From: a virus
IMG/VR virus record: IMGVR_UViG_3300012683_000008
Span: 15,798 to 79,797 of that record
Length of the DNA: 64,000 nucleotides
Strand: one strand, 5' to 3'
The notes below the pieces were generated by a model, which saw only the letters and a program-made list of their open reading frames with translations, was not told where the DNA came from and made no database searches. A program made the position numbers and the translations under genes. The first letter of the stretch is position 1. Each line of letters opens with the position of its first letter. Below, piece by piece: positions 7,225 through 40,884 of the stretch.

Positions 7225-8346
7225 TTAGAACTGGTCGACCTGGGGGTAGGTCAGGCCAGCGTCGGCACGGTTGTTCACCGTGGACAGGTTCTCCTCGGAG
7301 ACCGGCAGGGCGGCTGCGAAGCCGGTGTCGGTTGCGCCGGGGGTGACCGAGCCCGAGTAGAGCTCCAGCTTGACGACGGCGGCGATGTTGCCGAAGCCCA
7401 TGCCGATGTCTTCCCAGCTCATCCAGGTGATCAGGTTCGCGATCTTGTCGATGTAGAACTTGGTCTGGTTGAGGATGTAGAACCGGCCGAAGAACTCCGG
7501 CGCCGTGAAGCAGTAGATGTTGCCTTCACGGAGGAGGTCCGTCTTGATGGTCCGGATGATCTTCAGTCCGGTCACCGTGTTGGACTTCCAGCCCTCGGTT
7601 GCCGTCTCGCCGGCGATCGTCATGCCGACGTCCTGGATGGTCCAGGCCGAGATGTCGTCGTAGTCCGGCTCCGTGATGAGAACCCGCTCCGCACGCAGCT
7701 TCTTGCGGTGGAGCAGCTTCTTCAGCTTGATGAAGTCCGGCTTCAGCACCGGGTTGATCGTGAAGTTGTCCGTCGCCTGCGACAGAGCACCCTCACCCTT
7801 CACCACCGCCGAGCCGATGACCGTGGCGGCGAGCACCGCCGAGGTCCGGAAGCCCGTGGCCGAGCCGTTCACGTCGAGCTGCACCGCCTGGATGCAGGCT
7901 TCGACGTACAGCAGGAACTGCCGGTCTTCGATCTCCTGGATGTCCTTCACCGAGTTCTCTTCGATGATCTTGGTGATGGGCATCTCGTACGCCAGGAGCT
8001 CCTGCTCGTACTTCTCGAACTTCTCGCTCGCGATCGTGAAGAACGGGATCTCGTAGCGGGCCGCCCTGATGAGGCGAGCCGTGGGCTGGCCACGGAAGGT
8101 CAGCGCCATCGCCCGTGAGTTGGGCTCGATGTCGACGATCTTCACCAGCGTGTCGTGGTTGACCGACCGCTGGAGTTCGGTGCGCTGCACGTTCGTGGGA
8201 GGAACGATCTTTCTGGCGAAGCTGACTTCACGCAGACGGTCGCGGATGTACGACCCGCCGAACTCTGCGATCTTGTCCTTGCCCGCTGAGGATCCGATCT
8301 TCTCGAAGAACATCTCGTTGAGGACCTTTGCTGGGACTGCGCTCAT
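7225..8346 (-). CDS. Major capsid protein (HK97 fold)
   Basis: 373 aa, strongly biased codons, AGGAG RBS, own terminator; IRDRLRE.SFARKIVP and IEENSVKDIQEIEDRQFL spine-helix-like segment; downstream of protease and scaffold-like genes. Confidence 0.8.
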   Translation of the reverse strand: MSAVPAKVLNEMFFEKIGSSAGKDKIAEFGGSYIRDRLREVSFARKIVPPTNVQRTELQRSVNHDTLVKIVDIEPNSRAMALTFRGQPTARLIRAARYEIPFFTIASEKFEKYEQELLAYEMPITKIIEENSVKDIQEIEDRQFLLYVEACIQAVQLDVNGSATGFRTSAVLAATVIGSAVVKGEGALSQATDNFTINPVLKPDFIKLKKLLHRKKLRAERVLITEPDYDDISAWTIQDVGMTIAGETATEGWKSNTVTGLKIIRTIKTDLLREGNIYCFTAPEFFGRFYILNQTKFYIDKIANLITWMSWEDIGMGFGNIAAVVKLELYSGSVTPGATDTGFAAALPVSEENLSTVNNRADAGLTYPQVDQF

Positions 8347-16753: not shown

Positions 16754-16797
16754 AGAGAGTACCGGGAGGATGAGCTCGCTCCCGGTATTTCTCTTAG
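16754..16797 (+). terminator. Hairpin terminator followed by TTAG, between convergent genes
   Basis: AGAGAGTACCGGGAG / CTCCCGGTATTTCT stem. Confidence 0.65.
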
Positions 16798-18614
16798 TCC
16801 TCAGACTGGACGCCCGTCTTGGCAGTGGGGTTCAGGATGTCGAAGCGGGGGATCTTCAGCATCGATGCCAGCGTGCAGAGAAGGATGGAGTGGAACGAGT
16901 CGTCCGTCGCATCGGGGGTCTTCTTGTACTGAATCTGCCGCTGCTGCTCGTTGTACTCCGAGAAGATGTTCAGCATGTCCTTCGAGAACGGCTCTTCGAA
17001 GTGGACCCAGTTCGGGAACCGGAAGACGTTGCGACGCTTGATGGCGTTGAAGACGTCGGACATCACTTCGGTGCGGTGAACCAAGAACCGAGAGAGCTCG
17101 GGGTGCCACTGCACCTTCTGCCCAGGCTGAGAGTACTGGTACTTCCGAATGCGTTCGGGACCGAACTTGCGAGTCAGGTGATCGTTGCGGTCGAAGCCAC
17201 CGCCGTAGTCGACGCCGACCACCATGCAGTTCCAGGCCTTGATGATCTGGTCGATCTTGTCGAGCTGCACCTGCGGCTCGGTGTCCTGGTGCTCGAACCG
17301 GTGGATGTAGAAGATGCAGAAGAACCCATTCAGCATGTATGCGCCGAGTGAGAGAACCGTGTACGAACCTTCGCCAGTACCCCAGTCGATGCCAGCGAAG
17401 ACCGGGCTGCTTCCGCCAAGGTTGTGGCGGATCATGTCCAAGGTCGCCTGGTCCATCAGCAACTCGTTGGCACAGTTGTCCATGATGTCCTGGCGAGTGA
17501 GCGGACGAGTGCCAGAGTCGTACGAAAGACCGAGAACTTCGTTGTGGAACTGAGAGGGCGGGTAGGTCGTGTACTTGACCAGAATCTCGTTCCACTCCAG
17601 CCACGGCACCATCACCTGGGGAACTCGGAAGCCTTCGTAGGCCTTGTCTCCGAGACCACCTTCCTGAGGCGGCCGACGAACGGTGGGGTTCATCGACGCC
17701 CAGCAGGACTCTGCACTCATGGCGTGGATACGCTGCTTGCACTTGTCGCAGACGAGACCGTCTGAACCGATGTTGTTCTCGCCGAGGACGTTCCAGTGCC
17801 ACGAGGACGGATCCTTCGGAGTCCCATGGCGCTGACAAGGAACGACCCACTCGTTCTGTGTCGAGAACGCCGACCAATAATGCTCGATGGCGTTGTCGTA
17901 GGACTTCGGCGTCCCCGAGTACATGAAGAGCTTGAATGGAGAGTGAGAGGCGCACTCTTCGATGACGGGGATGTTGTCCGTGATGACGTCTTGGAGCTCG
18001 TCGATCAGGATGAGGTCGGCGGGGATACCACGGGTTCGGTCGGCGTTGTGGTAGGCGTAGCGGAGGGTGATCTGGCTCCGGTTGATGAACTTCTTGAGGA
18101 AGACGTTGTCCGAGAGCTTCGTCGTCGTCCAAGCTCGCAGCGAGTCCGAGGTCTCGATGGGCTCCTTCAGACGGTCCTGCGAGAACACCTTCGTCTGCTG
18201 GTTGGTCGGCGAGACGTAGAGGATGTTGAAGGCGTTGTTGATGCAGGCGTACGCCAGGCTCTTGTTGCCGAGGAAGGTCGACTTCTCGACCTGCCGGCCG
18301 CACTTGAAGAGAGTCCGCTTCGCCGAGGTGTCATACGGGAGCTTCAGGTACTCACGGCCTTCGAAGGAGAAGGGCACGTGCTTCTGGGCCTTCTTGTCTG
18401 GCACCTTGATGGCGAACTGCACGAACTCGGAAGGCATGACGCCCATGAGGCGTGCGTTGCGTCGTAGGATGTCCTCATCCAAGAGGGCTTCATCGAGGTC
18501 CGGCTCGAAGTCCCATTCCTCTTTGAGCTCAAGCCTGCCGCTCTCGGACAAGACGACGTTGGAGCCGAACTTCCGTCGATACTCGTCGCTGGATAGAACG
18601 TTGTCTTCGTACAT
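16794..18614 (-). CDS. Terminase large subunit (lambda GpA-like)
   Basis: Walker A-like CGRQVEKST, Walker B LILIDELQD, coupling motif SGTP, C..H/CDKC zinc segment, nuclease GIDWG ... VDYG ... DDSFHS. Confidence 0.88.
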   Translation of the reverse strand: MYEDNVLSSDEYRRKFGSNVVLSESGRLELKEEWDFEPDLDEALLDEDILRRNARLMGVMPSEFVQFAIKVPDKKAQKHVPFSFEGREYLKLPYDTSAKRTLFKCGRQVEKSTFLGNKSLAYACINNAFNILYVSPTNQQTKVFSQDRLKEPIETSDSLRAWTTTKLSDNVFLKKFINRSQITLRYAYHNADRTRGIPADLILIDELQDVITDNIPVIEECASHSPFKLFMYSGTPKSYDNAIEHYWSAFSTQNEWVVPCQRHGTPKDPSSWHWNVLGENNIGSDGLVCDKCKQRIHAMSAESCWASMNPTVRRPPQEGGLGDKAYEGFRVPQVMVPWLEWNEILVKYTTYPPSQFHNEVLGLSYDSGTRPLTRQDIMDNCANELLMDQATLDMIRHNLGGSSPVFAGIDWGTGEGSYTVLSLGAYMLNGFFCIFYIHRFEHQDTEPQVQLDKIDQIIKAWNCMVVGVDYGGGFDRNDHLTRKFGPERIRKYQYSQPGQKVQWHPELSRFLVHRTEVMSDVFNAIKRRNVFRFPNWVHFEEPFSKDMLNIFSEYNEQQRQIQYKKTPDATDDSFHSILLCTLASMLKIPRFDILNPTAKTGVQSED

Positions 18615-24605: not shown

Positions 24606-25673
24606 CTACTTGGCGAACAGGGACGACGAGGTGATGTCAGGGGTCGTTGGGGAAAGGGGAGGGCCGGTTGGAGCTCCAGGCGACGTTGTCGAGTGCATGT
24701 GGTTGTCGAGCCATGTCAGAAGAGGAGGGGCGAGAGCAACTCCCTTGGTCCCACCGCCGGCGTAGAGCTTTGGCTTGCAGTTCACCTGGCCCGAGCCTTC
24801 GATGTTGACGTCGCCTCCTGATGACTTGATGTCGACACCGTCGCTGCCCTTGATCTCCGCTTTCTTCTTTGAGTCGACGTTGAAGTTGTCTTCCGTCTTG
24901 ATGGTGATGGCCTTCTTTACCGTGAGCTTGAACTCCCCGTCGATCACCAGCTCAGCGTCCTTCTTCGTCGTCAGCTTGAGCTTGCCGTCTTTACCAAGAC
25001 TTAGCTCGATCTGTTTCTCGGCGCCGCTCTTGCCCTTGTCATTGATGAGAAGGGTGAGAATACGGTCGTCTCCATCACCGTGGGAACCGATAAGAAGCTT
25101 GGCAATTGGCTCCTCGTCGTCTGCGAACTCTCGGGCTGCGATCAAGAGAGAGGCTGGTCTCTTCCCGTCAGTCGTGCTCTCTTCTCGTTCCACTTTCCAT
25201 TCGAGGTCACCACCGAGAGTATGGAGACCGTAGTTCTCACAGAAGTCTTTGATGGTGTTGGCGATGGGCAGGAAGATCCTCTGGCACAGAGGCCCAGCCC
25301 CTATCTGTACGACTCCACCTCTCCGCAGAAACAGAAAGTTCTCGTCACGGGTGCCCATGTAAATGTCACCCGGATTGAGGTCTTTCTTCTTCGCCCTCGC
25401 ATCTCCGTCTTCGGACGCTGGCCCCCATGCGAGGATGAAGGGCCGGTTGTGATCTGAGGGCGAACAGATCCAACAGAGGCTGCCCACCTCCGGCATGAAG
25501 TAGATGCCCTCACCGTTCGAGTAGTGCTGGTACGGCGTGGCGAACTTGATGCCGGTCAGAGGCTTCTTCGAGAACTCGGTGGCAGCAGAGACCGTGTAGG
25601 TCGTGATGTCGACGTCCAGGATGATCCCGGACTCGATCCTGGCTGCAATTACCTCAGACTGAGTCGGAGTCAT
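24606..25673 (-). CDS. Baseplate central spike (P2 gpV/Mu gp45-like)
   Basis: N-terminal OB-fold motif FMPEVGSLCW, beta-helix repeats, C-terminal LDNHMH..PGAPTGPP (HxH apex). Confidence 0.75.
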   Translation of the reverse strand: MTPTQSEVIAARIESGIILDVDITTYTVSAATEFSKKPLTGIKFATPYQHYSNGEGIYFMPEVGSLCWICSPSDHNRPFILAWGPASEDGDARAKKKDLNPGDIYMGTRDENFLFLRRGGVVQIGAGPLCQRIFLPIANTIKDFCENYGLHTLGGDLEWKVEREESTTDGKRPASLLIAAREFADDEEPIAKLLIGSHGDGDDRILTLLINDKGKSGAEKQIELSLGKDGKLKLTTKKDAELVIDGEFKLTVKKAITIKTEDNFNVDSKKKAEIKGSDGVDIKSSGGDVNIEGSGQVNCKPKLYAGGGTKGVALAPPLLTWLDNHMHSTTSPGAPTGPPLSPTTPDITSSSLFAK

Positions 25674-28600
25674 CAGTACACGTACTTGGCTTTGCTCGGC
25701 GGAGCCTTACCGAACTCGGCCCCATACGCTACACCAGGAATCGGGTGAGTGCCGTGGAGGTCGGACTTCATGTTCGTTGCCACACCCTCCTGAAGGGTCG
25801 AACGAATCTGCTGGAAGTTGAGCCGGGCCATCCAGTCCTTCGACCGCATGGGCAACTGGTTGACCGACTGGAGCATCGGCCGGTGAACGACCTGCCTGGC
25901 ACCCTTTGCCATCTCCCGGTTTCTCTCTTCGACCTTCGAAAGGGCGATGATGTCTCCAGGCGTGTAGTCCGAGTCTCCTGGCTCTACGACCTTGGTGAGG
26001 TTCGTGAGGGCCCTGACCACCGTCTCGATGTTCCTCCGCCGCACGCCCTCTTTCTTGTAGAGGCCATTGTAGAGCTCGTTCGTGAGGTGGTTCTGCACGT
26101 TGGACATGTCGGTGTACTTCAGGAGGTGCAGAGGGTTGACGTGACCTTCTGAAATCGCATCACCCTTCTTCACCTCGGACCCGATCTGAACCATGAGCGG
26201 CAGCTTCACCGGCACGTAGTGACGCTCGTCACCGATGAAGATGTCGTGACCACCGGCCGCATCCTTCTTGATGTCCGTCACCTTGCCGGTCACCTTCGAG
26301 AGGGTCGCCTCGTTCTTCAACTTCTTTGGCACCTTGAGGAGGTTGTTCAGCTTCTCGAAACGGCTGACCGACATCGCTCCTCTCGTGCTGCCGGCGATGC
26401 CGCCGGAGTGGAATGCGTCCATCGCCATCTGCACAGCCGGTTCACCCATCGACTGGCCAGCGAGGATGCCGACGTTCGTGCCCTCTGAGTGGAGGGTTCC
26501 GTTCTCGTTGAGACCGAAGCACTTGGCGCAGATGCCTTCGCCCTTGTGGCACTTGAGCGGAGAACGAACGACGACCTTGTCGTGCTTCGAGTTCTTCAGC
26601 CGGCTCCAGATCTCTGGAGTGACGAGCGTTCCGGCCTTGATGACCTTGCCGTCTTTCGTCTCGTACGGCTTGGCCAAGAAGCGATCGTGGATGTCCTCGT
26701 GTTCGAGCGGCATCAGAACGCCGTGGGTAGTACCGCAGTCCTCAGACGTGATGAGGTAGTTCATCGTCGAGTTGAGGATCTCCTTCGACATCGCTCCAGG
26801 CTCGCTGGTGCCCTGAGCACGCTGGAGGGTTCCCTTGCGAGCGCCGTGCTGTGCCAGCCAGTAGTCGCCGATGTCCAGACCTTCGGAGTAGCTCCTGGTC
26901 ACAGGCGTTGGGATGGTCCGGTTGGTCGCATCCTGCATCAACATCGGAGCAGCGATCATCTGTCGGAGCTGCTCTGGCTTTCCACGAGCCCCGGAGTAGA
27001 CCATCGTGGCAAGACGGTTCGACGTACCAGCGAGCTGGTGCCGAGCTGAGGCATCGAGCTCTTCGGTCGCCTTCGAGTAGATACTGACGAGCTTCGCATC
27101 GAGCTCGTCCTTGCCCTTGACGGTCTTCTTGGCCTGATCCGCTTCCTTGTGGGCGACGGCCAGGATGCGGTCTCGACCTTCTAGGGGCTTCAGGTCCTTC
27201 AAGCCGATGGAGAACGCCGTCTGGTAGGAGTGCTCGTTGCCGAGATCCTTCAGGGCGTCGATGGCCTGAGCGAAGTGCTCTGAATGGTTCTTGGCGAGAT
27301 CCGTCGCCATGTGGCTCATCGTCTTCTTGTTGATCTCGTAGCTCGGATCGTGAAGAACACCCTCACGCATATGCATGGTCTTCGGCAGCCACGCAGCGAT
27401 GCGCATGCGGCCGAGAGTGGTGTCCTTGCCGTTGAGCTTGATGATGTCCGTGTGCTCGATCTCGTGCTTGTCAGCAGCACGGTCGACTCCGGCACCGTCA
27501 GTGAAGCTCTTGGTCGTCTTCTTGCCCCACTTCGACATCAGGTGGAGACCGAGCATTGCTTCCTGGCTCGGCGTGTACATGACGCTGCCCGTGGTCGGGG
27601 AGAAGAGGTTCCTCGACGGGAACATCTTCTTGGCCTCGTCCACTGCCTCACGAGACAGAGGCACAGTACCGGCCATAGTGTCACCGTCGAAGTCGGCGTT
27701 GAAACCACCGGTGACGAGCGGGTGAATCTGAATGGCCTTGCCTTCGATGAGCTTCGGCTGGAACGCCATCACCGAGAACTTGTGGAGTGCAGGGTCACGC
27801 TTCAGGAGGATGGGGCGGTCCTTCACCACCTCTTCGAGTGCCTTGAAGGCGAAGTCGGTCCCGTCCTTCATCTCCTTGCGAGCGACGAGAGGATCCATGC
27901 CCCAGCGTCCGAGCTGGGCGACCACGAAGGGCTTGTAGAGCTCCATCGCTGCGTTCTTCGGCAGGCCGACCTGATCGATGTGCAGGTTCGGCTCGGGGAT
28001 GATGGTGGAACGGATCGAGAGGTTCTGCCGCCTCTTGACGAGCTTCGACTGGAAGTAGGCGTCCTTTGGCTGGTCGCCTTCTCCAGAGCCACCGAGAGTC
28101 TCCAGGATGCCCTTGAGCTTCCTCCGACCGCTCGACTCGTCGTAGACGGGTCGGTAGTCGCCGACTGCCTGGAGTGCTTTGTAGGCGTCCCAGAGAGCTG
28201 ACTGGAGCGGCTTCCGATCGCTCTCCGTGAAGACCGCTGGGTCCCAGTCCTTGAGAGCCTGGTTGACGATGGCGAAGTTCTTGTAGTGCTGAACGATGGG
28301 CGGAGTGTTCACGTCCCCACGGTCTGTCGGCGTCATCGGCCGGAAGACCGGCGGGATGATCGGCAGGTAGTGGGTCATGTACGCCTCAGCGGGCGACATG
28401 CCGTTCTCTTTCAGAGCGGTGAGGAACTTCACCTTCTTGTGGAGACGATCGAGCTGAGCTCCCTTCACCGTCTTGAGCCGCTCCTTGGCCCCACGAAGTT
28501 CGGCATCGACGTCAAGCTTCTGCAATGCGGACTTGATGGCCGCACCACCGGTCTTGCCGTTGAGGTCCTGCTTGCCGGCCATGATGGCGTCGATGTCTTC

Positions 28601-31600
28601 GAGCTTCAGGTGCAGCAAGGTCGGAACCGGACCTGGTCGGTTGCCGGCGCCCACGAAGATGGGAGACGGCATCGGCTCCGCCATGCGGATGAAGGACCAC
28701 TTCTCGCCCTCGATCCCGCCCGTGGCGTGAGGGTCGTAGAGACCACCCTTCTCTTCCTTCAGGTCCTTCGCACGGAGGGTGTACTTGCCCTTGGTGATTT
28801 CGTTCTTGCCGTTGTTGGCGAGACGAAGAGTGTCCTTGTCCGTGAGAGGCAAGAGACGGATCTCCGTCCCCTCCTTCTGCACGTTGATGCCTGAGCCTTT
28901 GAGCAGCGCCTCGAACTTCTTGTACGAGAACGGGACCTGAGGAGGAGGCGGCTCGAACCCCTGCTGGATGCGGACCCAGAAAGAGTCGTCCTGCTTGTCG
29001 GACTTGTACGTCGCCATCTCTCGAACGTTGTGCCGAGCTCCGTGTCCCAGCATCGAGTAGAGCTCAAGCTGGCCGAAGCCCTGCCCACCGTGGGCACCGC
29101 CCTTCACCGGCTGACGATCGAGGCTGTAGGTCAACGGCTTGTTGTCGAGTGTCGTGCCACCGCCACGAACGCTGAGCTTCTTCTCGACCTGGTGACGCAG
29201 CTTCAACAGGTACTGCGGCCCGACCAGGACCGAGCCCATCACCCTCGACGGGTCCTTCGGGTCGAAGACGTGCTCTTCATCGTTGATGCCGTGGTGCTTG
29301 AGCTCATCAACAACCTGAGAACGGTAGTCGTGGTTCGGTCCTGAGAAGTTGTTGACGACATACGGCTTGCCCGTCTTCTCGGCGATCTTTCCGGCGGCGG
29401 TCTCCAGAAGTTGTCCGACGTTGATGCGTGTAGGAACTCCTGAAGGGTTGAGAAGAACTTCGAGGGGCTTGTGCTCACCTTTGGGATCCTTCGTGAACGG
29501 CATCTCGTGATCGGGAATGATCTGCGTGATGATGCCCTTGTTTCCGTGACGACCAGAGAGCTTGTCTCCGACCACCATCTGCTCTTCGGTCCTGACGTAG
29601 ACCTTCACGCCCTTGCCGTTCGGCTGATGAACGACTCGAACCACCTCGCCCATGTGGTCCTCGTCCCAGACGAGGCTCTTGTCCTTGTAGGCGAAGAACT
29701 TGTTGTAGCGAGAGCCGAGGGCCGCCAAGGCGCTGCCGCCCTTGGTGTTGGTGTTCTTGGACAGGGCAGTGATCAGCACTGAACCAGGCTTCACCTTCGT
29801 GCCGACCTTGATGACACCGTGCTCGTCGAGAGAGTCGAACTCCTCTTTCGTCATCTCCGTCGCCCGACGGGAGGCGAAGGCGTGCCAGGACTTCTTGTTG
29901 ACCGTATCGTTGTCCGGATCGATCTCCAGGTTCTTCCGGTACAGGTGCTCGGAGGTCAGCTTCTTGGCTGCCGTCTCTGAGATGACGATGCCGTCTTCGA
30001 AGTTGTAGCCCTTGTACGGCATGTACCCGACCCGGAGGTTCGTTCCGATCGCGAGCTGGCCGTCTCTGGTGAAGTTCGTATCGGCCAGGAGCTGGCCTTG
30101 CTTCACCGAGTCTCCGACCTTCACCTGGGGAGTCGAGTGCATCATCCCCTTGTCGTCGTTGAGCGGGAAGTGGTTGTAGAGGTGGACTTCGTGCTTGCTC
30201 TTCCCCTCGCCGATGACGATGAAGTTCGGGGTCACGCTGGTGACCTTGCCGGAGACTGGAGAGTTGATGGAGCTGAACGAGCCGATGACCTTCTCGAAGG
30301 TGCTGGCTCCTTCCGTCTTTGATTGCACCAGTGGCGCCTCACGATGCTTCAGTGAGATGGCCTGCTCCATCTGCTTGTCGGCCATCGACACACGGTTTCC
30401 TTGGTCGGTTGGTAGGAAGGGAATGAGGTTCGAGGTGTAGTCGAAGAGACCCTTGGCCGAGGGAAGGACGTACGTCGCCTCCTTGAACGGCCGGGTCTCG
30501 ATGGCCCCGCCTGGAAGCTTCATCTTAACGTTGGCGGAGATGGGTACTGGCTTGCCCTTCTCCCACTTCACCTGGTCAGGAAGCACAGCAGACGCCTGGT
30601 GAAACGCTGGCACCCCCACGTACTCGATCTTGCCGGAGGCGATGGAGAAGGCGGGTGTCTCCAGCTCCTTGCCGTTCTTCCGAACGTTGGCTGCCAGGTA
30701 GAGCGTGATGCCTGTGCGCTCTGACTCCGGGGTGTGCATCGGGTCGAGGAACCCGAAGTGGCTCGGGTTGATGACCTGCATCTGCTCGGTGATGGCGTTC
30801 TTGTTCTTGATACCGCCGAGGTCAGAGAAGAGCGTCGTCTTCCGGTGACCCGCCATCATCTGGAGCGGGTTGGTCTGGTCGTACCGCTCGATGATCTTGG
30901 TGCCGCCGCTGAGGAAGAAGGCGTTGATGGGCTTCTTGAACAGGTCAGGAGAGACGATCTCCGTGATGGTCTTCTTGTGGTCGACCGTCTGACGCAGCTT
31001 CACCTTGATGTTCTTGGCGTTCCTCGCCAGCATCTCGGGAACGAAGTCCTCGACAGAGACGACCTCCTTGAAGGCGAGGCTGTCACGGTCATCCGGCTCC
31101 TGGGTGCCACGAGAGACGCCCAGAATCTTGTTGGCTGCCAACTTGAGCACTTCGCCGTTCACCTGAGTGAAGGGCTTGCCCAGCGTCACCTTCGTGGTGT
31201 CAGGAAGCAGGGCCGTGCTGTCGAAGAAGTGGTGAACGTAGGCGTGGTGACCGGCGTCGTCCTTCGGTACCTCAGCGTCCTCTTCGTTCGTCCTCTTGAA
31301 GAAGTCCTGAAGAGCCTTCTCGTTCTTCTTGTCGAACTTGTTGGAGTGGAAGATCTCCGCTCCCCACTGGTGCTCCAGCTCGTCGTCCGAGACGCCCATC
31401 GACTTCATGATGGGGTAGAGCGGAATGTGAGCTGAGCCGTACTTGAACGAGAACTTCTTCGTGCGAGGGTTCAGGTGGATGGAGAAGTTGCTGCCCAGCT
31501 TGCGAGCCAAGTTGAACTCAGATTCGAGCTCGCCGTTCTCCTGCACTCGGGCGTAGACGCCTGACTTGAGGCGGAAGAGGTGGTCGACCTGGTACTCGTT

Positions 31601-31912
31601 GCCGCTGACGATGAAGCCGTAGCGGCTGGTGAGCTTCGGAATGGTGGCCAGTGTGGCCTTCTTCTTGTCGATGACCTGCCCTGTCGTCTTGTCGATGAGA
31701 GACAGGTTGGCGACGACCGGCACGCCCCAGGTGCGCTCGTTGTCCTTGGCGTCGGCCTGGGACTTGATGTCACCGATGTCGAGCTTGTCGTCGACTCCGA
31801 TGCTGTCGAGAACGATCTTCTGTCGCTTGCCCTCGAACGGGAAGTACGCACCGATGGAGCTGACGACGTTCTTCTTCAGCGTCTCGAAGCTTGCTTCTGG
31901 GGTGATGTCCAC
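25673..31912 (-). CDS. rpoBC: Single-chain DNA-directed RNA polymerase, fused beta-beta' subunits (2079 aa)
   Basis: beta motifs DQTNPL, HTPE, YNFEDGIVISE, GDKLSGRHGNKG, LLNPSGVPTRINVGQ, GGQGFGQLE; beta' motifs LPIIPPVFRP, KRDPALH, NADFDGD (27680-27700), SGARG, GARKG, DCGT, RSPLKC..ICAKC, GEPAVQMAMDAFHSGG. Confidence 0.95.
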   Translation of the reverse strand: MDITPEASFETLKKNVVSSIGAYFPFEGKRQKIVLDSIGVDDKLDIGDIKSQADAKDNERTWGVPVVANLSLIDKTTGQVIDKKKATLATIPKLTSRYGFIVSGNEYQVDHLFRLKSGVYARVQENGELESEFNLARKLGSNFSIHLNPRTKKFSFKYGSAHIPLYPIMKSMGVSDDELEHQWGAEIFHSNKFDKKNEKALQDFFKRTNEEDAEVPKDDAGHHAYVHHFFDSTALLPDTTKVTLGKPFTQVNGEVLKLAANKILGVSRGTQEPDDRDSLAFKEVVSVEDFVPEMLARNAKNIKVKLRQTVDHKKTITEIVSPDLFKKPINAFFLSGGTKIIERYDQTNPLQMMAGHRKTTLFSDLGGIKNKNAITEQMQVINPSHFGFLDPMHTPESERTGITLYLAANVRKNGKELETPAFSIASGKIEYVGVPAFHQASAVLPDQVKWEKGKPVPISANVKMKLPGGAIETRPFKEATYVLPSAKGLFDYTSNLIPFLPTDQGNRVSMADKQMEQAISLKHREAPLVQSKTEGASTFEKVIGSFSSINSPVSGKVTSVTPNFIVIGEGKSKHEVHLYNHFPLNDDKGMMHSTPQVKVGDSVKQGQLLADTNFTRDGQLAIGTNLRVGYMPYKGYNFEDGIVISETAAKKLTSEHLYRKNLEIDPDNDTVNKKSWHAFASRRATEMTKEEFDSLDEHGVIKVGTKVKPGSVLITALSKNTNTKGGSALAALGSRYNKFFAYKDKSLVWDEDHMGEVVRVVHQPNGKGVKVYVRTEEQMVVGDKLSGRHGNKGIITQIIPDHEMPFTKDPKGEHKPLEVLLNPSGVPTRINVGQLLETAAGKIAEKTGKPYVVNNFSGPNHDYRSQVVDELKHHGINDEEHVFDPKDPSRVMGSVLVGPQYLLKLRHQVEKKLSVRGGGTTLDNKPLTYSLDRQPVKGGAHGGQGFGQLELYSMLGHGARHNVREMATYKSDKQDDSFWVRIQQGFEPPPPQVPFSYKKFEALLKGSGINVQKEGTEIRLLPLTDKDTLRLANNGKNEITKGKYTLRAKDLKEEKGGLYDPHATGGIEGEKWSFIRMAEPMPSPIFVGAGNRPGPVPTLLHLKLEDIDAIMAGKQDLNGKTGGAAIKSALQKLDVDAELRGAKERLKTVKGAQLDRLHKKVKFLTALKENGMSPAEAYMTHYLPIIPPVFRPMTPTDRGDVNTPPIVQHYKNFAIVNQALKDWDPAVFTESDRKPLQSALWDAYKALQAVGDYRPVYDESSGRRKLKGILETLGGSGEGDQPKDAYFQSKLVKRRQNLSIRSTIIPEPNLHIDQVGLPKNAAMELYKPFVVAQLGRWGMDPLVARKEMKDGTDFAFKALEEVVKDRPILLKRDPALHKFSVMAFQPKLIEGKAIQIHPLVTGGFNADFDGDTMAGTVPLSREAVDEAKKMFPSRNLFSPTTGSVMYTPSQEAMLGLHLMSKWGKKTTKSFTDGAGVDRAADKHEIEHTDIIKLNGKDTTLGRMRIAAWLPKTMHMREGVLHDPSYEINKKTMSHMATDLAKNHSEHFAQAIDALKDLGNEHSYQTAFSIGLKDLKPLEGRDRILAVAHKEADQAKKTVKGKDELDAKLVSIYSKATEELDASARHQLAGTSNRLATMVYSGARGKPEQLRQMIAAPMLMQDATNRTIPTPVTRSYSEGLDIGDYWLAQHGARKGTLQRAQGTSEPGAMSKEILNSTMNYLITSEDCGTTHGVLMPLEHEDIHDRFLAKPYETKDGKVIKAGTLVTPEIWSRLKNSKHDKVVVRSPLKCHKGEGICAKCFGLNENGTLHSEGTNVGILAGQSMGEPAVQMAMDAFHSGGIAGSTRGAMSVSRFEKLNNLLKVPKKLKNEATLSKVTGKVTDIKKDAAGGHDIFIGDERHYVPVKLPLMVQIGSEVKKGDAISEGHVNPLHLLKYTDMSNVQNHLTNELYNGLYKKEGVRRRNIETVVRALTNLTKVVEPGDSDYTPGDIIALSKVEERNREMAKGARQVVHRPMLQSVNQLPMRSKDWMARLNFQQIRSTLQEGVATNMKSDLHGTHPIPGVAYGAEFGKAPPSKAKYVY

Positions 31913-31963
31913 GTTGTGCCCTTACCCTGCGCCAGGTGAGGAAGTCACGATCGACCAGACCCT

Positions 31964-31982
31964 ACCCTTGCGCAGCAAGGGT
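31964..31982. repeat. Perfect inverted repeat ACCCTTGC-gca-GCAAGGGT between divergent transcription units
   Basis: Seen directly; possible operator or hairpin. Confidence 0.5.
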
Positions 31983-32027
31983 CCTCAGGCCCGTCGGCAG
32001 GGTACATGAAAACAGACTCTTGCCCAA

Positions 32028-35162: not shown

Positions 35163-37187
35163 TCAGCTCACCGGGGCGGGACGACGAGAAGGCTTCTGCT
35201 GCGGAATCGGACTCTGCGTCGGGTTCAACGGATCGGCCTGTGATCCCTGCTCGCTCTGGAGGAGACGGAAGACCACCATGTAGAGCTGGGGGTTCGACAT
35301 CTTCATCCGGTTGAGCTCTTGGTACTTCTGAGCCTCAGGCATGCCCTGGAGCTTCTCGGCTGCACGCTTGGCGAGGTACAGGATGTTCGCACCTCCACCC
35401 TGCATGCCCATCGTGAGTGGGCTCTGCATCTGCTGCGGAACACCTTCCTGAGGTGCCTGCTGGGCATTCTCCATCGAGACCGAAGAGCCCGGAGGCATCG
35501 CTGGGTCGACCGCCTGCCCGTCGAGCATCTCGCCTTCTTGCCCCGTCTGACCTCCGCCCTCTTGCCCTGGTGCCCCTCCTCCTGGAGGAGCCCCTTCCAT
35601 GCCTGGCGCTCCGCCCTGGGGCATGGCGGCCATCATGATCTGCTGGGCCTGAGCCTGGTAGCGGGCCGTGACGACCTGCACTTCGCCCTGCACACCAGCC
35701 TGAGCGAGCTGCATCTTCCTCTGGTACTCCAGCTCCTTGTCGAGCTCGCCCTTCCGGCGCTCGGCCTCGACGATCGGGTCGAAGTCGGCTTCTTGGAGCA
35801 TGGTCTGCTTCGAGATCATCATCGCCTGGTTCATCTGGAAGAAGAACGCAGTGCGCTGGAGATCGTCCGCCATCTTGAACCGGCGCATGTGGGCCTTCAC
35901 TACCGGCCAGCCCATGAACTCGGCGATGCGTTTGATGACGAACTTGTTGAGCATCAGGTGGTGGTCCGTGCGGTACCCGATGAACATGTTCTCCAGCATC
36001 CGCATCGAGACGTTGGAGCCGGAGTACTGCATGCCGCCGAAAACGAACTCTTCGGGCACGCCCATGCCAGCCACGATGTGCCGGCTCCAGACTTCCATCT
36101 CCTGGTAGAGGCCGAGGGCCTTACCGTCTCCGCCGATGGACTCGTTGCCGATCGGCAGCGGCATGATGGGGATGTAGTTCTGGTCGTACTTCCACTTGGC
36201 GATCTCCGACTCGATCCGACCCTTCCAGTTGTCGAGGTTGATCGTGGTGTACGGGTCGGCCGTGCCACCGTTGCCGGTCGGGAAGAGAACTCGCAGAGGA
36301 ACGATGTGCTCCTGAGCGATGGCTTCCTGAGCCTTGCGGAGGATCTGAAGGTAGAACGTATCCTTCAGCACCGGGAAGATGAGCGGCATGCCCCAGCCCA
36401 TGTCCTTCTGGCTGATGATGGGCCGCTTGAAGACGAAGATGTTGTCGTCGGAGAACCGGATGAACTTGTTCCGACGCATCGCCTCGATGAACGTGTCGGG
36501 CACGGTGTCGAGAACGTTCTTCTTCCCGAGGATGATGTCGTTCTTGAGCTGGATGGGGATCTCGAAGGTGTAGACCGGATCCGCTCCTGCGAAAGCTGGG
36601 TCGACGTTGATGTACTCGGGGTTCCACCGCATCAGGCGAATGCGGCGGACGTCTCGCTCGAAGTAGTCGAGCACCTTCGCCGGGCCGTAGTGGCTGCACT
36701 TGTCGCACTGGATGATGTAGTCGAAGTTCTTCCAGGTGTAGGCCAGCTTCGAGGCCTTCTCCTTGTGCTTGCAGCGCTCGCAGATGAGCCACTTCGTGTA
36801 CGGGAAGTGAACCGTGACGACGCACATCCCGTAGGTGTAGTAGTCGAGACCGACCTCGATCTGAAACGCTCGGTACCGCAGCATCTCTCCGAGAAGTGTC
36901 TCCCACTTCTCTTTGACTTCTTTCCTCTCCTCGTCGACGACGATCTCCGTCACCGGGTACTCGCTCATCTTGTGGACCACTGCGTTGATGAGCGGATTGA
37001 CGAGGTAGTAGTACCGGCACCACCTCATCAGCGCCTTCATCGAAGGCGGGAGGTACGTGTGGCCGATGTCGAAGAATGGAGAGGGGTATCGGACGCCGCT
37101 CCGGCTCATGCCGTCAGCGGTACGCCCACGCTGACCGGAGAACCGGGACGTTCCCGAGAAACCAAGACCAAGATTGTCGAAGCTCAA
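35163..37187 (-). CDS. Portal protein with zinc-ribbon insert and Q/P/G-rich C-terminus
   Basis: YYYLVNPLINAVVHKMSEYP, GLDYYTYG, WGMPLI, IVPLRV, IVAGMGVPEEFVFGG.YSGSNVSMR; CERC..CDKC. Confidence 0.78.
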   Translation of the reverse strand: MSFDNLGLGFSGTSRFSGQRGRTADGMSRSGVRYPSPFFDIGHTYLPPSMKALMRWCRYYYLVNPLINAVVHKMSEYPVTEIVVDEERKEVKEKWETLLGEMLRYRAFQIEVGLDYYTYGMCVVTVHFPYTKWLICERCKHKEKASKLAYTWKNFDYIIQCDKCSHYGPAKVLDYFERDVRRIRLMRWNPEYINVDPAFAGADPVYTFEIPIQLKNDIILGKKNVLDTVPDTFIEAMRRNKFIRFSDDNIFVFKRPIISQKDMGWGMPLIFPVLKDTFYLQILRKAQEAIAQEHIVPLRVLFPTGNGGTADPYTTINLDNWKGRIESEIAKWKYDQNYIPIMPLPIGNESIGGDGKALGLYQEMEVWSRHIVAGMGVPEEFVFGGMQYSGSNVSMRMLENMFIGYRTDHHLMLNKFVIKRIAEFMGWPVVKAHMRRFKMADDLQRTAFFFQMNQAMMISKQTMLQEADFDPIVEAERRKGELDKELEYQRKMQLAQAGVQGEVQVVTARYQAQAQQIMMAAMPQGGAPGMEGAPPGGGAPGQEGGGQTGQEGEMLDGQAVDPAMPPGSSVSMENAQQAPQEGVPQQMQSPLTMGMQGGGANILYLAKRAAEKLQGMPEAQKYQELNRMKMSNPQLYMVVFRLLQSEQGSQADPLNPTQSPIPQQKPSRRPAPVS

Positions 37188-39367: not shown

Positions 39368-40789
39368 TCAGTTGGTCGGGAGTCCGTCGAATTCCTGGCT
39401 GGCGAGACGAGCCAGGACCTTCTTCTGAAGGTCGGGCAGGGACTCGAAGATGGTGATGGGATCTTTCGAGAAGGCAGCGGCCAGCCCAGGTTCGAACTGC
39501 TTCGAGACCAGCGGCCGGCCGTTGAGGGCGAGCTTCTTGAGCTGGTCGCCGGAGACGTAGTCGCCCGTGTTGCTCATCCAGCTCCAGGCAGCACTCGCTT
39601 CCTTCACCTTGTTGCCGCCGAAGGTGGCGTAGAACGGGTCAGCGAGGTGGCCACCGTAGTACCAGTTCAGTCCGGCGACCTCGTCTGCCTCAGCGAGGAG
39701 CTTCACGAACTCGTCAGGCTCGATGCTGGCTCGCTTCTCCTGGAGAGTGTCCCAGAGCTCTGCGTGATCCGAAGCGAGGGAACGGCGGTTCGCCAGGTGC
39801 GCCTCGACATCAGGGGCGTACTCGACCGAGCCGTACCGCTCCAGCTCTTCGCTCACCGAGATGCCGAGCTCTTCAGCCCGTGAGGCTGTCTTCACGGCGA
39901 AGTCGTGACGGTCTTCTGGAGTGAGCTCCAGGTAGTTCTCGTTGAAGAACCGAACCGCCATCTGGACATCGCCGAAGCTGTCGAGCGGGTACTGGTTCAA
40001 GGCCATGTGCTGCGCTGAGGCCTTCTTCACTAGCAGAGGAGCTTCGAGGTTCGAGACGTCCACGACGTTGGCCATCTTCACCGGGCCGCAGCCGTCCTTC
40101 TCTTTCGGCTCGGCCTCGGGGTTCAGCTTGTGGAAGTCCTTGAGGTAGTCGACCTTGTCGCCCTTCTTGGGAGCCTTGGGCTTGAACCCGTCCCTCTTGT
40201 TGTCGGCCTTCTCCTGAGCATCGTCGATGTGATCCTGTGCCTCTTTCACCGAGGCGGTCTTCATCGAGCTCGCCGTGGGAATGACCCGACCAGCGTCGGC
40301 ACCGCCTCGAACGCTCACGAGGTTCGTCCTCTCGTTCCAGTCGGCTTCGTCTCCGACCAGAGGCTGCCGCATCGGGTCTCTCGACCGAGCAGACCCCTTC
40401 GTCGGAGCGGCAGTAGCCTGCTCCTTCCGACCAGCGATCTTCTCCAGGCTCTCGATGGGAAGACCGAAGAACGAGCACGCCTGCCCGATGTTGGCCGCAG
40501 CGACCTTCACTGCTTCCTCCGGGAGACGGTCTGCGTTCTCTGCGAGGTAGAGCGCCGAGAGAAGGGTGTTGCCGGGGTCGACGCAGGCGAACTTCCGAAT
40601 CATCTTGCCGTCGTTCTTCATGACGAGAGCGAAGGCATCGTCTCGGAGAATGTCTCTCTCTTCCGAAGACAGGATGTGGGCCACCTTGATGACCTCTGGA
40701 AGGGTCTCGGCCGTCGGGAAACTCCTCTTCAAGAGGGCGCCCTCCAGGTCGTCATAGAAGTCGAGAACCACGCCTGCGGTCTTCATCAA
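39368..40789 (-). CDS. Putative head protein (first gene of portal operon)
   Basis: 473 aa; AAGGAG RBS; about ten K-x-A motifs; YPLDS...A.RFF helical segment. Confidence 0.7.
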   Translation of the reverse strand: MMKTAGVVLDFYDDLEGALLKRSFPTAETLPEVIKVAHILSSEERDILRDDAFALVMKNDGKMIRKFACVDPGNTLLSALYLAENADRLPEEAVKVAAANIGQACSFFGLPIESLEKIAGRKEQATAAPTKGSARSRDPMRQPLVGDEADWNERTNLVSVRGGADAGRVIPTASSMKTASVKEAQDHIDDAQEKADNKRDGFKPKAPKKGDKVDYLKDFHKLNPEAEPKEKDGCGPVKMANVVDVSNLEAPLLVKKASAQHMALNQYPLDSFGDVQMAVRFFNENYLELTPEDRHDFAVKTASRAEELGISVSEELERYGSVEYAPDVEAHLANRRSLASDHAELWDTLQEKRASIEPDEFVKLLAEADEVAGLNWYYGGHLADPFYATFGGNKVKEASAAWSWMSNTGDYVSGDQLKKLALNGRPLVSKQFEPGLAAAFSKDPITIFESLPDLQKKVLARLASQEFDGLPTN

Positions 40790-40821: not shown

Positions 40822-40851
40822 AGTGTAGGTCCTTCCCCTCGGAACGGTCAA
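40822..40851 (-). promoter_or_regulatory. sigma70-like promoter of portal operon (TTGACC-18-TACACT)
   Basis: Near-consensus hexamers about 33 nt upstream of the first gene. Confidence 0.5.
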
Positions 40852-40884
40852 CGAATTCCCCCGGACAAGAACGAATGCTTTCAC

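Follow-up and report, generated by a model that had tools for sequence, protein, structure and literature searches.

A single-chain, bacterial-type β-β′ RNA polymerase in the virion gene arm of an uncultured phage

Organisation of the locus and the polymerase reading frame

The window, a stretch of 64,000 nucleotides, is part of a 79.8-kb metagenomic contig of an uncultured soil phage and represents approximately one third of a genome of ~200 kb, of which the contig makes up ~43%. The contig is viral, with portal, terminase, head and spike genes. On the minus strand are the genes for the major head protein (7225..8346; phrog_2522, 3.9e-10), the large terminase (16794..18614; phrog_675, 1.5e-58, and Pfam GpA_ATPase), a 355-aa central baseplate spike (24606..25673), the RNA polymerase (RNAP; 25673..31912) and the portal (35163..37187; phrog_16240 and phrog_2833). 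No tRNA genes were found in the window. Searches of PHROGs and Pfam returned nothing for most of the neighbouring genes, and 50,697 phage records gave zero matches either to the RNAP gene (megablast) or to the neighbouring 473-aa and 802-aa proteins (tblastn). For the 473-aa protein, the protein atlas pointed, weakly, to DUF6582 clusters (scaffold or protease-associated).

The spike was assigned by Phage_base_V and phrog_9992 (weak) and by its AF2 model (pLDDT 67.5), for which the best Foldseek matches are all central spikes, namely those of eCIS, VgrG, phi92 gp138, P2 gpV and the R2 pyocin (E 4e-7 to 1e-3). The RNAP stop codon overlaps the spike ATG as TGATG (25673-25675). The preliminary description had placed the polymerase in a virion operon coupled to the spike gene, and the surrounding virion-gene arm, the overlap and the predicted spike fold bear this out. 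The overlap is not conserved: in relatives the two genes are separated by 13-46 nt or by an insert of 0.7-1 kb. The order portal, RNAP-spike, TerL is preserved in 17 loci, and the RNAP gene follows the portal gene in all related loci that reach that far and in Salmonella phage Arash and Vibrio phage D69. The RNAP gene would be the head of a leftward operon that continues into the central-spike and baseplate-like genes.

The RNAP gene starts with GTG and its frame is uninterrupted over 2,079 codons. In Pfam, Rpb2 domains 3, 6 and 7 fall within aa 345-974 (Rpb2_6, 2.5e-63) and are followed by Rpb1 domains 1-5 over aa 1134-1981 (Rpb1_2, 9e-28), and the top matches in a sequence search of solved structures were bacterial β′ (6e-116) and β (2e-81). 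The translation, these profile searches of both halves and the positions of the motifs confirm the earlier observation that one 2,079-aa frame holds the catalytic motifs of both subunits. The near full-length β module (aa 1-1011; 28880..31912, minus strand) was delimited by motifs and by alignment with the cyanobacterial β subunit 8gzg_C, where aa 7-1006 align end to end with residues 20-1051 of 1104. It contains GYNFEDG (aa 635-641), GDKLSGRHGNKG (aa 782-793) and LNPSGVPTRINVGQ; both GYNFED and the GDKxxxRHGNKG lysines of the β double-psi barrel are thus present.

The β′ module (aa 1018-2079; 25676..28861, minus strand) was defined by its motifs, its zinc site and Foldseek, in which the RNAP model matched bacterial β′/cyanobacterial γ with an E value of 1.7e-31 and an rmsd of 3.3 Å. 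NADFDGD is found at aa 1405-1411 (nt 27680-27700), with D1407-D1411 invariant family-wide in the homologues, and the bridge-helix motif GARKG at aa 1690-1694, while the trigger loop retains its His and has Asp in place of Arg. The whole protein has four Cys residues (C1726, C1788, C1795 and C1798), all of which belong to the second zinc site; the four-Cys N-terminal zinc-ribbon domain of β′ is absent. The segment from GLYD to WSF is ~14 residues long, and this short loop is conserved among the homologues. Based on sequence comparisons, the catalytic core is a compact, recognisably bacterial-type β-β′ fusion. One polypeptide would provide the entire catalytic core of a bacterial-type two-barrel RNAP, in which the clamp-helix region of β′, the catalytic aspartates, the bridge helix, the trigger-loop His and the second zinc site are retained and the N-terminal zinc ribbon is lost.

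The fusion junction and the phylogeny of the enzyme

The junction (28838..28933, minus strand), defined by homologue alignment, AF2 and an independent contig, consists of the β C-terminal helix (aa 994-1011), a six-residue turn, QKEGTE (aa 1012-1017; nt 28862-28879), and the start of β′, IRLLPLTD (aa 1018-1025). The nearly linker-free passage from β to β′ noted previously near 28860-28890 is located at this turn. AF2 models the junction with confidence, as a helix followed by a β-hairpin (pLDDT 89-95), and the model superposes on bacterial β′; the chain would run from the last β-subunit strand through the six-residue turn into the first β′ strand. The junction is conserved and near-constant in length in 64 homologues, including those of Arash and D69, and in 62 of the 64 the β C-terminal helix and the GLFD motif are separated by 39-46 residues. 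With the halves joined by so short a turn, no assembly platform would be needed, in agreement with the lack of alpha and omega matches in the four near-complete relatives searched.

The source metagenome was assembled at ~8x depth, so that a sequencing error at the junction could in principle have merged two adjacent genes; sequencing runs X3 and X4 cover the stretch only in parts. Such an assembly or gene-calling artefact is, however, exceedingly improbable. An independent 2025 soil metagenome contig that covers 28300-29500 differs by 65 substitutions, many at the three-base spacing typical of silent changes, and keeps the same open frame, so that the stop or frameshift raised in the preliminary description as a concern was not encountered. 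Hundreds of separately assembled homologues are also unbroken at the junction: protein clusters at 50% identity number at least 150, almost all aligned in a single stretch spanning the junction, and the 120 closer RNAP clusters come from contigs of up to 220 kb.

In a tree of the phage clade (including Arash and D69) and 20 bacteria from 12 phyla, the branches separating phages from bacteria have SH-aLRT support of 100. The window protein clusters with those of Arash and D69, apart from the bacteria (SH-aLRT 100 on either side), and the phage clade is internally more diverse than the 20 sampled bacteria. On this evidence the enzyme is outside all sampled bacterial clades and does not nest within one, which had been a further concern. 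Recent capture of a cellular rpoB-rpoC fusion, carried as a host-derived passenger gene with no phage-specific adaptation, is very unlikely. Cellular β-β′ fusions from which it might derive do exist, such as a 2,284-aa protein of a Paceibacterota MAG, which groups with CPR bacteria in the tree; yet in a search of 185,579 species genomes identity to bacterial proteins reaches no more than 27-31%, and the SH-aLRT 100 separation from all 20 bacteria, the diversity within the clade, the loss of the zinc ribbon and the conserved phage gene order all argue against capture.

The enzyme is not unique but, judged by its homologues, a member of a very large uncultured clade, and hundreds of uncultured phages have the same single-chain design. 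Literature searches found no description of a bacterial-type β-β′ fusion in phages. Members of the clade, from soil and other metagenomes, are filed as "beta'" or "hypothetical".

Probable sigma partner, control of expression and possible packaging

No above-cut-off match to sigma-70 r2/r4, alpha or omega was obtained in the whole 79.8-kb contig. A weak Sigma70_r2 match at the very start of the contig was rejected; it is unrelated to the sigma-like protein of the relatives. Five near-complete relatives have one RNAP gene each. In the four of these relatives that were searched for partners, alpha and omega (RNA_pol_L and Rpb6) gave no match, whereas 14 of 14 control genomes were positive. All four encode a homologue of the sigma-like Arash Gp10 (E 1e-10 to 1e-22), with Sigma70_r3 above cut-off in one, and in each this sigma-70-like gene is 50-70 kb away from the RNAP gene. 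The preliminary description had recognised no alpha, omega or sigma gene; this stands for the contig, but the relatives do have a sigma-like factor. As more than half of the genome is missing and the relatives' sigma gene is far from the RNAP gene, the absence of sigma from the contig probably reflects the missing part. The presence of a sigma-70-like factor in all four relatives searched suggests that the enzyme is probably sigma-dependent rather than sigma-less. Initiation would most likely involve a divergent phage-encoded factor of the sigma-70 family, the gene for which lies, in the relatives, outside the region covered by this partial contig.

A promoter-like site, TTGGGC-N17-TACCCT (31999..32027, minus strand), was identified upstream of the RNAP operon by alignment of upstream regions and motif scans. 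Its consensus in aligned relatives is TCGTTGMC-N17/18-TAYNCT, and the -35 element is degenerate in the window. A consensus sigma-70 scanner found no site at 20-40 kb and the promoter emerged only from the aligned relatives; k-mer enrichment across the whole window was swamped by coding bias. Motif scans revealed a second site of the same type (40822..40854, minus strand) before the 473-aa gene that heads the block leading to the portal, in the same position in L008, L012, L013, L018 and L019. The type is rare: three ~200-kb genomes have 1-3 sites apiece and a fourth has none. Such a -35/-10-type promoter, which otherwise precedes the head/portal block, would drive the RNAP operon, and we infer that RNAP is co-expressed with the virion genes.

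The RNAP promoter resembles an ordinary sigma-70 promoter, so that host RNAP could read the RNAP gene early. This would suit a T7-like, non-virion polymerase, in which the host enzyme and its primary sigma use the promoter early in infection and the phage enzyme then accumulates, transcribes middle and late genes with its sigma-like factor and is not packaged. The conserved TTGACC-N17-TAYNCT with sigma-70 geometry before the RNAP gene, and the rarity of the motif (0-3 sites per whole genome), are in keeping with such a scheme, as is the single RNAP gene per genome. The head/portal block is, however, headed by the same promoter type, and the RNAP gene is co-transcribed with the spike gene, or at least adjoins it. 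In known tailed phages morphogenesis genes are late.

A conserved, structured 5′ leader (31923..31993, minus strand), recognised by covariation and by covariance model R1, separates the promoter-like site from the RNAP gene. Its predicted fold consists of two stacked stems and a loop able to pair with GCGCA just 5′ of the ribosome-binding site. Cells of the alignment are paired in 80% of cases vs about 40% with slid partners, and covariation is 0.333 vs 0.185, with 0 of 500 shuffles equal or higher. The single-sequence fold is no better than shuffles (z = -0.5), and RNAalifold recovered only the inner hairpin from the raw alignment. R1 finds a single copy per locus that covers the RNAP upstream region, always directly before the RNAP gene, and does not detect the leader in Arash/D69-type phages; no Rfam family matches it. 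A leader conserved in this way and confined to the front of the RNAP gene is, on the alignments, new here. It probably tunes translation of the RNAP gene, making it a testable case of phage polymerase autoregulation, and it points to control of enzyme dosage within the cell, as expected of a non-virion polymerase.

Virion preparations of Arash contained Gp206, Gp216 and Gp10, with Gp206 the most-detected protein (PMC10585845). The prominence of the polymerase protein Gp206 and the presence of the sigma-like Gp10 argue against a purely intracellular enzyme, for which the Arash signal would have to be carry-over. Carry-over is made easier by the crudeness of that proteome: a sucrose gradient was the sole purification, and the 116 "structural" proteins include ribonucleotide reductase and a helicase (PMC10585845). 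Transfer of the Arash data to the window phage is also weighed against by the ~31% identity of the two enzymes and the split β′ of Arash. A virion/non-virion pair of the phiKZ kind is lacking, as each genome has one RNAP gene. Taken together, the T7-like, non-virion polymerase is a real but doubtful possibility.

The best explanation overall, which we somewhat favour, combines a single-chain core, a phage sigma, an operon shared with virion genes, a structured leader and possible loading into the particle. The preliminary description had the enzyme made late and packaged for injection; support for this is indirect, coming from the promoter class common to the RNAP operon and the head/portal block, from the gene context and from the Arash proteome. 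For the loading itself, with the enzyme entering the particle, being injected and transcribing early, the case is about evenly balanced. Tentatively, a more specific version can be proposed: a two-component machine of a 230-kDa core and a small phage sigma may be made with the virion parts at a level set by a leader RNA switch, loaded next to or through the spike-tail apparatus and injected, for a start independent of host polymerase.

Comparison with known RNA polymerases

Bacterial cores have separate β and β′ subunits on an alpha dimer with omega, in contrast to the one chain of the window RNAP. Fusions of rpoB and rpoC exist in Helicobacter and Wolbachia. These cellular fusions have the same order and join as the window protein, β C-terminus to β′ N-terminus, but are full-size, operate alongside alpha, omega and sigma and cluster within their own phyla, whereas the window RNAP is viral and outside the sampled bacteria.

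The most similar described phages are Arash (Gp206 and Gp216, with the sigma-like Gp10; PMC10585845) and Vibrio phages D69, D181 and D148. Like the window phage they have the same β-β′ junction, lack the zinc ribbon and carry the RNAP gene after the portal; a sigma-like partner is present. Identity to the window protein is, however, only ~31%, and their β′ is cut after the catalytic domain, giving proteins of 1,525 aa and ~606 aa from genes 0.6-5 kb apart, unlike the β′ of the window phage and of 18 IMG/VR loci, which is continuous. Their annotation is plain "beta" and "beta'", with the fusion unmentioned.

The mReC, or multisubunit-RNAP-encoding Caudovirales (Weinheimer & Aylward 2020; PMC7481178), are uncultured tailed phages, often of 100-300 kb, whose β and β′ are found by cellular HMMs and branch outside Bacteria, traits shared by the window phage. 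The mReC entries considered, from Supplementary Data 2, all have separate β (~900-1,560 aa) and β′ (~900-1,400 aa), sometimes as two sets per genome, and the group is defined there by β and β′ as separate genes each of at least 800 aa; the window, by contrast, has a single ORF. Six loci related to the window had IMG sample numbers that did not occur among the supplementary entries considered.

The virion RNAP of phiKZ and AR9 is made late and injected (PMC7598289, PMC13282480). Like the members of the window clade, these are phage two-barrel enzymes without alpha or omega, but they comprise four or five polypeptides, with two sets per genome, rather than one chain from one gene. They are also far more divergent from the cellular enzymes, and phiKZ and AR9 have no sigma-70 homologue, unlike the relatives of the window phage with their sigma-like factor.

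The RNAPs of crAss-like phages, Thermus phage P23-45 and YonO resemble the window RNAP in having both barrels on one polypeptide, and some are virion-borne; that of P23-45 is fused to the tape measure (10.1101/2022.12.01.518664). According to the mReC study, they are too divergent for cellular β/β′ HMMs (PMC7481178), in contrast to the window RNAP with its strong Pfam Rpb2 and Rpb1 matches and nearly all of the bacterial domains kept. The clade would offer a natural minimal system in which to study why polymerases need a zinc ribbon, alpha and omega, how a fused core initiates with sigma and whether a 230-kDa bacterial-type enzyme can traverse a phage tail. The cellular-type RNAPs so far known from phages are either heavily split, as in phiKZ and AR9, or barely recognisable, as in crAss-like phages and P23-45, and the enzyme described here is the opposite case: compact, single-chain and plainly bacterial in type, without alpha or omega and with a sigma partner apparently kept.

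The fused reading frame and its junction

The RNA polymerase (RNAP) gene is a frame of 2,079 codons without interruption, located on the minus strand at 25673-31912, with a GTG start. Pfam identified Rpb2 domains 3, 6 and 7 at residues 345-974 of the protein, followed by Rpb1 domains 1-5 at 1134-1981. The beta motifs GYNFEDG (residues 635-641), GDKLSGRHGNKG (782-793) and LNPSGVPTRINVGQ (821-834) and the beta' motif NADFDGD (1405-1411) were found, as were the bridge-helix GARKG and the trigger-loop histidine in the beta' part, in agreement with the preliminary description of one ORF carrying the motifs of both subunits. A cyanobacterial beta subunit (1,104 residues) aligns end to end with residues 7-1006 (E = 2e-81), and the beta half is thus nearly complete rather than a stump. 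For the second half, the top matches among solved structures are bacterial beta' chains (E = 6e-116). The compactness of the enzyme comes mostly from missing lineage-specific inserts and a missing beta' N-terminal zinc ribbon. Where bacterial beta' places a ribbon with four cysteines, from GLF up to the following conserved strand, the single-chain family has a short loop of ~14 residues, and the four cysteines of the entire protein are all in the second zinc site.

At the junction, the beta C-terminal helix (residues 994-1011) is followed only by QKEGTE and then by IRLLPLTD, the counterpart (matched by eye) of the first conserved bacterial beta' strand; the earlier wording 'almost without linker' is accurate. 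The junction stretch is conserved in an alignment of 62 intein-free homologues with Gp206 of the Salmonella phage Arash and the protein of the Vibrio phage D69, and in 62 of these 64 sequences 39-46 residues separate the helix from the GLFD motif. The structure prediction proposed earlier was run with AlphaFold2 on residues 760-1480 (36-row alignment; mean pLDDT 87.8, pTM 0.81). The junction is modelled confidently, as a helix then a beta-hairpin (score 89-95), and the predicted structure can be superposed with Foldseek on bacterial beta' as well as on the gamma chain of cyanobacteria (E = 1.7e-31, rmsd 3.3 Å, 530 columns), the latter being the closest structural match for the N-terminal half of beta' as modelled.

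A search of 5.8 billion proteins with the RNAP returned 120 clusters at 48-93% identity, most of them of 2,080-2,130 residues and from contigs of up to 220 kb. A junction-spanning query (residues 600-1500) was compared with 1.84 billion representatives at 50% identity; the top 150 matches all had E values of 1e-174 or better and most aligned as a single stretch over the junction. Those aligned in several stretches were mainly longer proteins, of the kind with intein domains in the 5.8 billion-protein search, where the longer versions contain intein or homing-endonuclease domains. Many homologues (P0007, P0008, P0071, P0092, P0202 and others) are 2,450-4,739 aa long, and the long ones with precomputed Pfam results carry the intein/homing-endonuclease domains PF14528, PF14890 and PF05204, which the window's copy lacks.

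A contig identical to the window was found in the probable source run. An independent 2025 soil metagenome contains a contig across 28300-29500 with 65 substitutions relative to the window, many of them three bases apart, and with a one-base deletion and an insertion two bases apart that compensate each other, such that the frame is kept through the junction. This open frame, together with the many fused homologues, rules out an assembly artefact as the source of the fusion.

Genomic setting and upstream elements

The source contig of the window (IMG/VR, 79,797 bp) is 43% complete according to CheckV; its relatives include contigs of 196-209 kb with terminal repeats, for which completeness is put at 100%. 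In the window, the minus-strand arm contains genes for the major head protein, large terminase, portal and spike, and the plus-strand arm (41.5-62 kb) encodes a helicase, DnaB, primase, family-A DNA polymerase, RecA-like protein and ThyX. The order 473-aa gene, 337-aa gene, portal, short divergent genes, RNAP, 355-aa gene, 802-aa gene, 296-aa gene, terminase is common to 17 related loci. The 355-aa product has a predicted structure of moderate confidence (pLDDT 67.5), whose best Foldseek matches are all central spikes (E = 4e-7 to 1e-3), namely eCIS/PVC spikes, VgrG, phi92 gp138, P2 gpV and the R2 pyocin spike. As described earlier, the RNAP stop overlaps the spike start (TGATG). In relatives the two genes are separated by 13-46 nt or by an insert of 0.7-1 kb, so the adjacency is conserved and the overlap is not. 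The extra 0.7-1 kb is present in the related loci L010 (17332-18019) and L013 (16255-17231), and the tight coupling in the window is therefore not universal. The initial observation as a whole (intact fused ORF, junction and spike overlap) is confirmed.

When the regions upstream of the RNAP gene were aligned for 15 genomes, a promoter-like site and a leader stood out as conserved. The former has the -35/-10-type consensus TCGTTGMC-N17/18-TAYNCT and reads TTGGGC-N17-TACCCT in the window (31999-32027, minus strand). A second copy (40822-40854, minus strand) precedes the 473-aa gene (39368-40789, minus strand), the first of the block running to the portal, and the motif is at the equivalent place in five relatives. 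The strict pattern gave one to three sites in the genomes of three of four ~200-kb relatives and none in the fourth; where it was found, the RNAP site was always among the sites, and the reversed control gave two matches in total. Copies are at 30072, 38010 and 61107 in the relative G002 and at 119205 and 128095 in G004.

With this rare motif at both places, the RNAP operon and the head-morphogenesis block have one promoter class in common. This is indirect support for co-regulation of the RNAP with virion genes, and so for the earlier proposal that it is made late. A T7-like scheme, in which the gene is transcribed early by the host RNAP, is also possible because the site has the geometry of a host sigma-70 promoter.

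In 50,697 phage records no sequence related to the 473-aa protein was found. Its predicted structure is of low confidence; the one lead is a weak resemblance to viral clusters associated with DUF6582 or prohead protease, by which it may be scaffold-like. The sequence GGGATAAG is present three times on the plus strand of the window (16164, 40885 and 46290), each copy being intergenic and upstream of a plus-strand gene, dnaB among them; it may be a separate class of promoter or operator that serves the replication arm.

The leader (31923-31993, minus strand) lies between the promoter-like site and the RNAP start codon. Two stems, the outer one GGCYC/GRGCC and the inner one ACCTC/GAGGT, are separated by a short bulge and enclose a loop with UGCGC; this loop is able to pair with a GCGCA located 15-20 nt before the start codon, beside the ribosome-binding site. 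Across the 15 aligned sequences, pairing is present in 80% of cells, and sliding the partners lowers this to 36-45%; covariation scores 0.333 vs 0.185 for shuffles (0 of 500 as high), and pair changes on both sides are present in each helix. The fold of a single sequence is no better than shuffles. A covariance model built on the nested part was run on 18 sources, namely the window and 17 related loci, and found exactly one leader in each, without exception immediately ahead of the RNAP gene (as in the loci L006-L023); two of the loci matched outside the training set are not near-copies of any training row. No further copy was found by the model in the window or within the 10-kb flanks, the loci of Arash and D69 gave no hit, and the leader has no match in Rfam. 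The leader probably serves the translational control of the polymerase mRNA specifically; since TGCGCA is a palindrome, it could alternatively be read as an operator at the DNA level.

Polymerase partners and packaging

The preliminary description had recognised no alpha, omega or sigma gene. No match to sigma-70 region 2/4, alpha or omega was above the cut-off in the 79,797-bp contig, but as this is a 43% fragment their absence means little. A weak sigma match at the contig start is unrelated to the sigma-like protein of the relatives. Five of five near-complete relatives have exactly one RNAP gene. In the four of them that were searched neither alpha nor omega was found (14 of 14 control genomes scored). 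On sigma the earlier interpretation was incomplete, since all four carry a homologue of the sigma-like Arash Gp10 (E = 1e-10 to 1e-22), 50-70 kb from the RNAP gene. Arash Gp10 matches Sigma70_r3 at 9e-9, and the homologue of one relative passes the Pfam cut-off. The most economical reading is a single-chain core working with a phage sigma; on architecture and context the earlier interpretation stands.

The evidence on packaging comes from the Arash virion proteome, in which Gp206 has the most spectra of all proteins and Gp216 and Gp10 were also detected. The particles were purified by sucrose gradient only, 116 proteins were classed as structural, and carry-over is raised as an explanation by the authors of that study. 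Whether the RNAP is packaged in the particle we judge to be about evenly balanced.

Relationship to cellular and phage polymerases

The closest cultured phages, at ~31% identity, are the Vibrio phages D69, D181 and D148 and Arash. In these, a 1,525-residue protein encoded right after the portal contains beta together with the N-terminal part of beta', while the remainder of beta' is a separate protein of ~606 residues. The best cellular matches, among 185,579 bacterial and archaeal species (one genome each), are ordinary rpoB-rpoC operons (27-31% identity).

A maximum-likelihood tree (LG+G4, 2,002 columns) was constructed from 18 single-chain proteins, Arash, D69, a Rhizobium phage beta' and the concatenated beta and beta' of 20 bacteria from 12 phyla; it is without archaeal sequences, phiKZ-type sequences and those of the multisubunit-RNAP-encoding Caudovirales. 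The bacteria are on one side and the single-chain and Arash-type proteins on the other (SH-aLRT 100 each). The RNAP is thus not nested among these bacteria, a placement that the preliminary description had named as refuting it, and the phage clade is more divergent internally than the 20 bacteria. Arash and D69 group within the single-chain clade, and therefore the beta-beta' join is common to the entire clade; subject to the position of the root, the Arash-type beta' split looks secondary. The Arash-type cut after the catalytic domain (loci L002 and L003) broadly recalls the cyanobacterial/plastid gamma/beta' split.

The cultured Rhizobium phage RHph_TM30 (207 kb) has a beta'-like gene (1,127 aa, L118:6410-9793) whose branch in the tree lies between the bacteria and the single-chain phage clade; its record has no beta match. 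A Candidatus Paceibacterota MAG contig (L074:163-7014) has one stop-free frame of 2,284 aa over rpoB and rpoC. This protein groups with other CPR bacteria and is thus an independent cellular beta-beta' fusion.

Weinheimer & Aylward (PMC7481178) described phages with deep-branching beta and beta'; each examined row of their supplementary table gives separate beta and beta' proteins, and their text mentions fusion for crAssphage only. In the Arash paper, Gp206 carries the annotation 'beta' and Gp216 the annotation 'beta'', and neither a 2021 comparative survey nor a 2026 jumbo-phage review mentions a fused bacterial-type enzyme. The single-chain bacterial-type architecture of phage RNAPs hence appears to be undescribed in the literature searched. 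The RNAP belongs to a large, uncharacterised clade and unites two known kinds, the phage-encoded cellular-type RNAP and the natural beta-beta' fusion.
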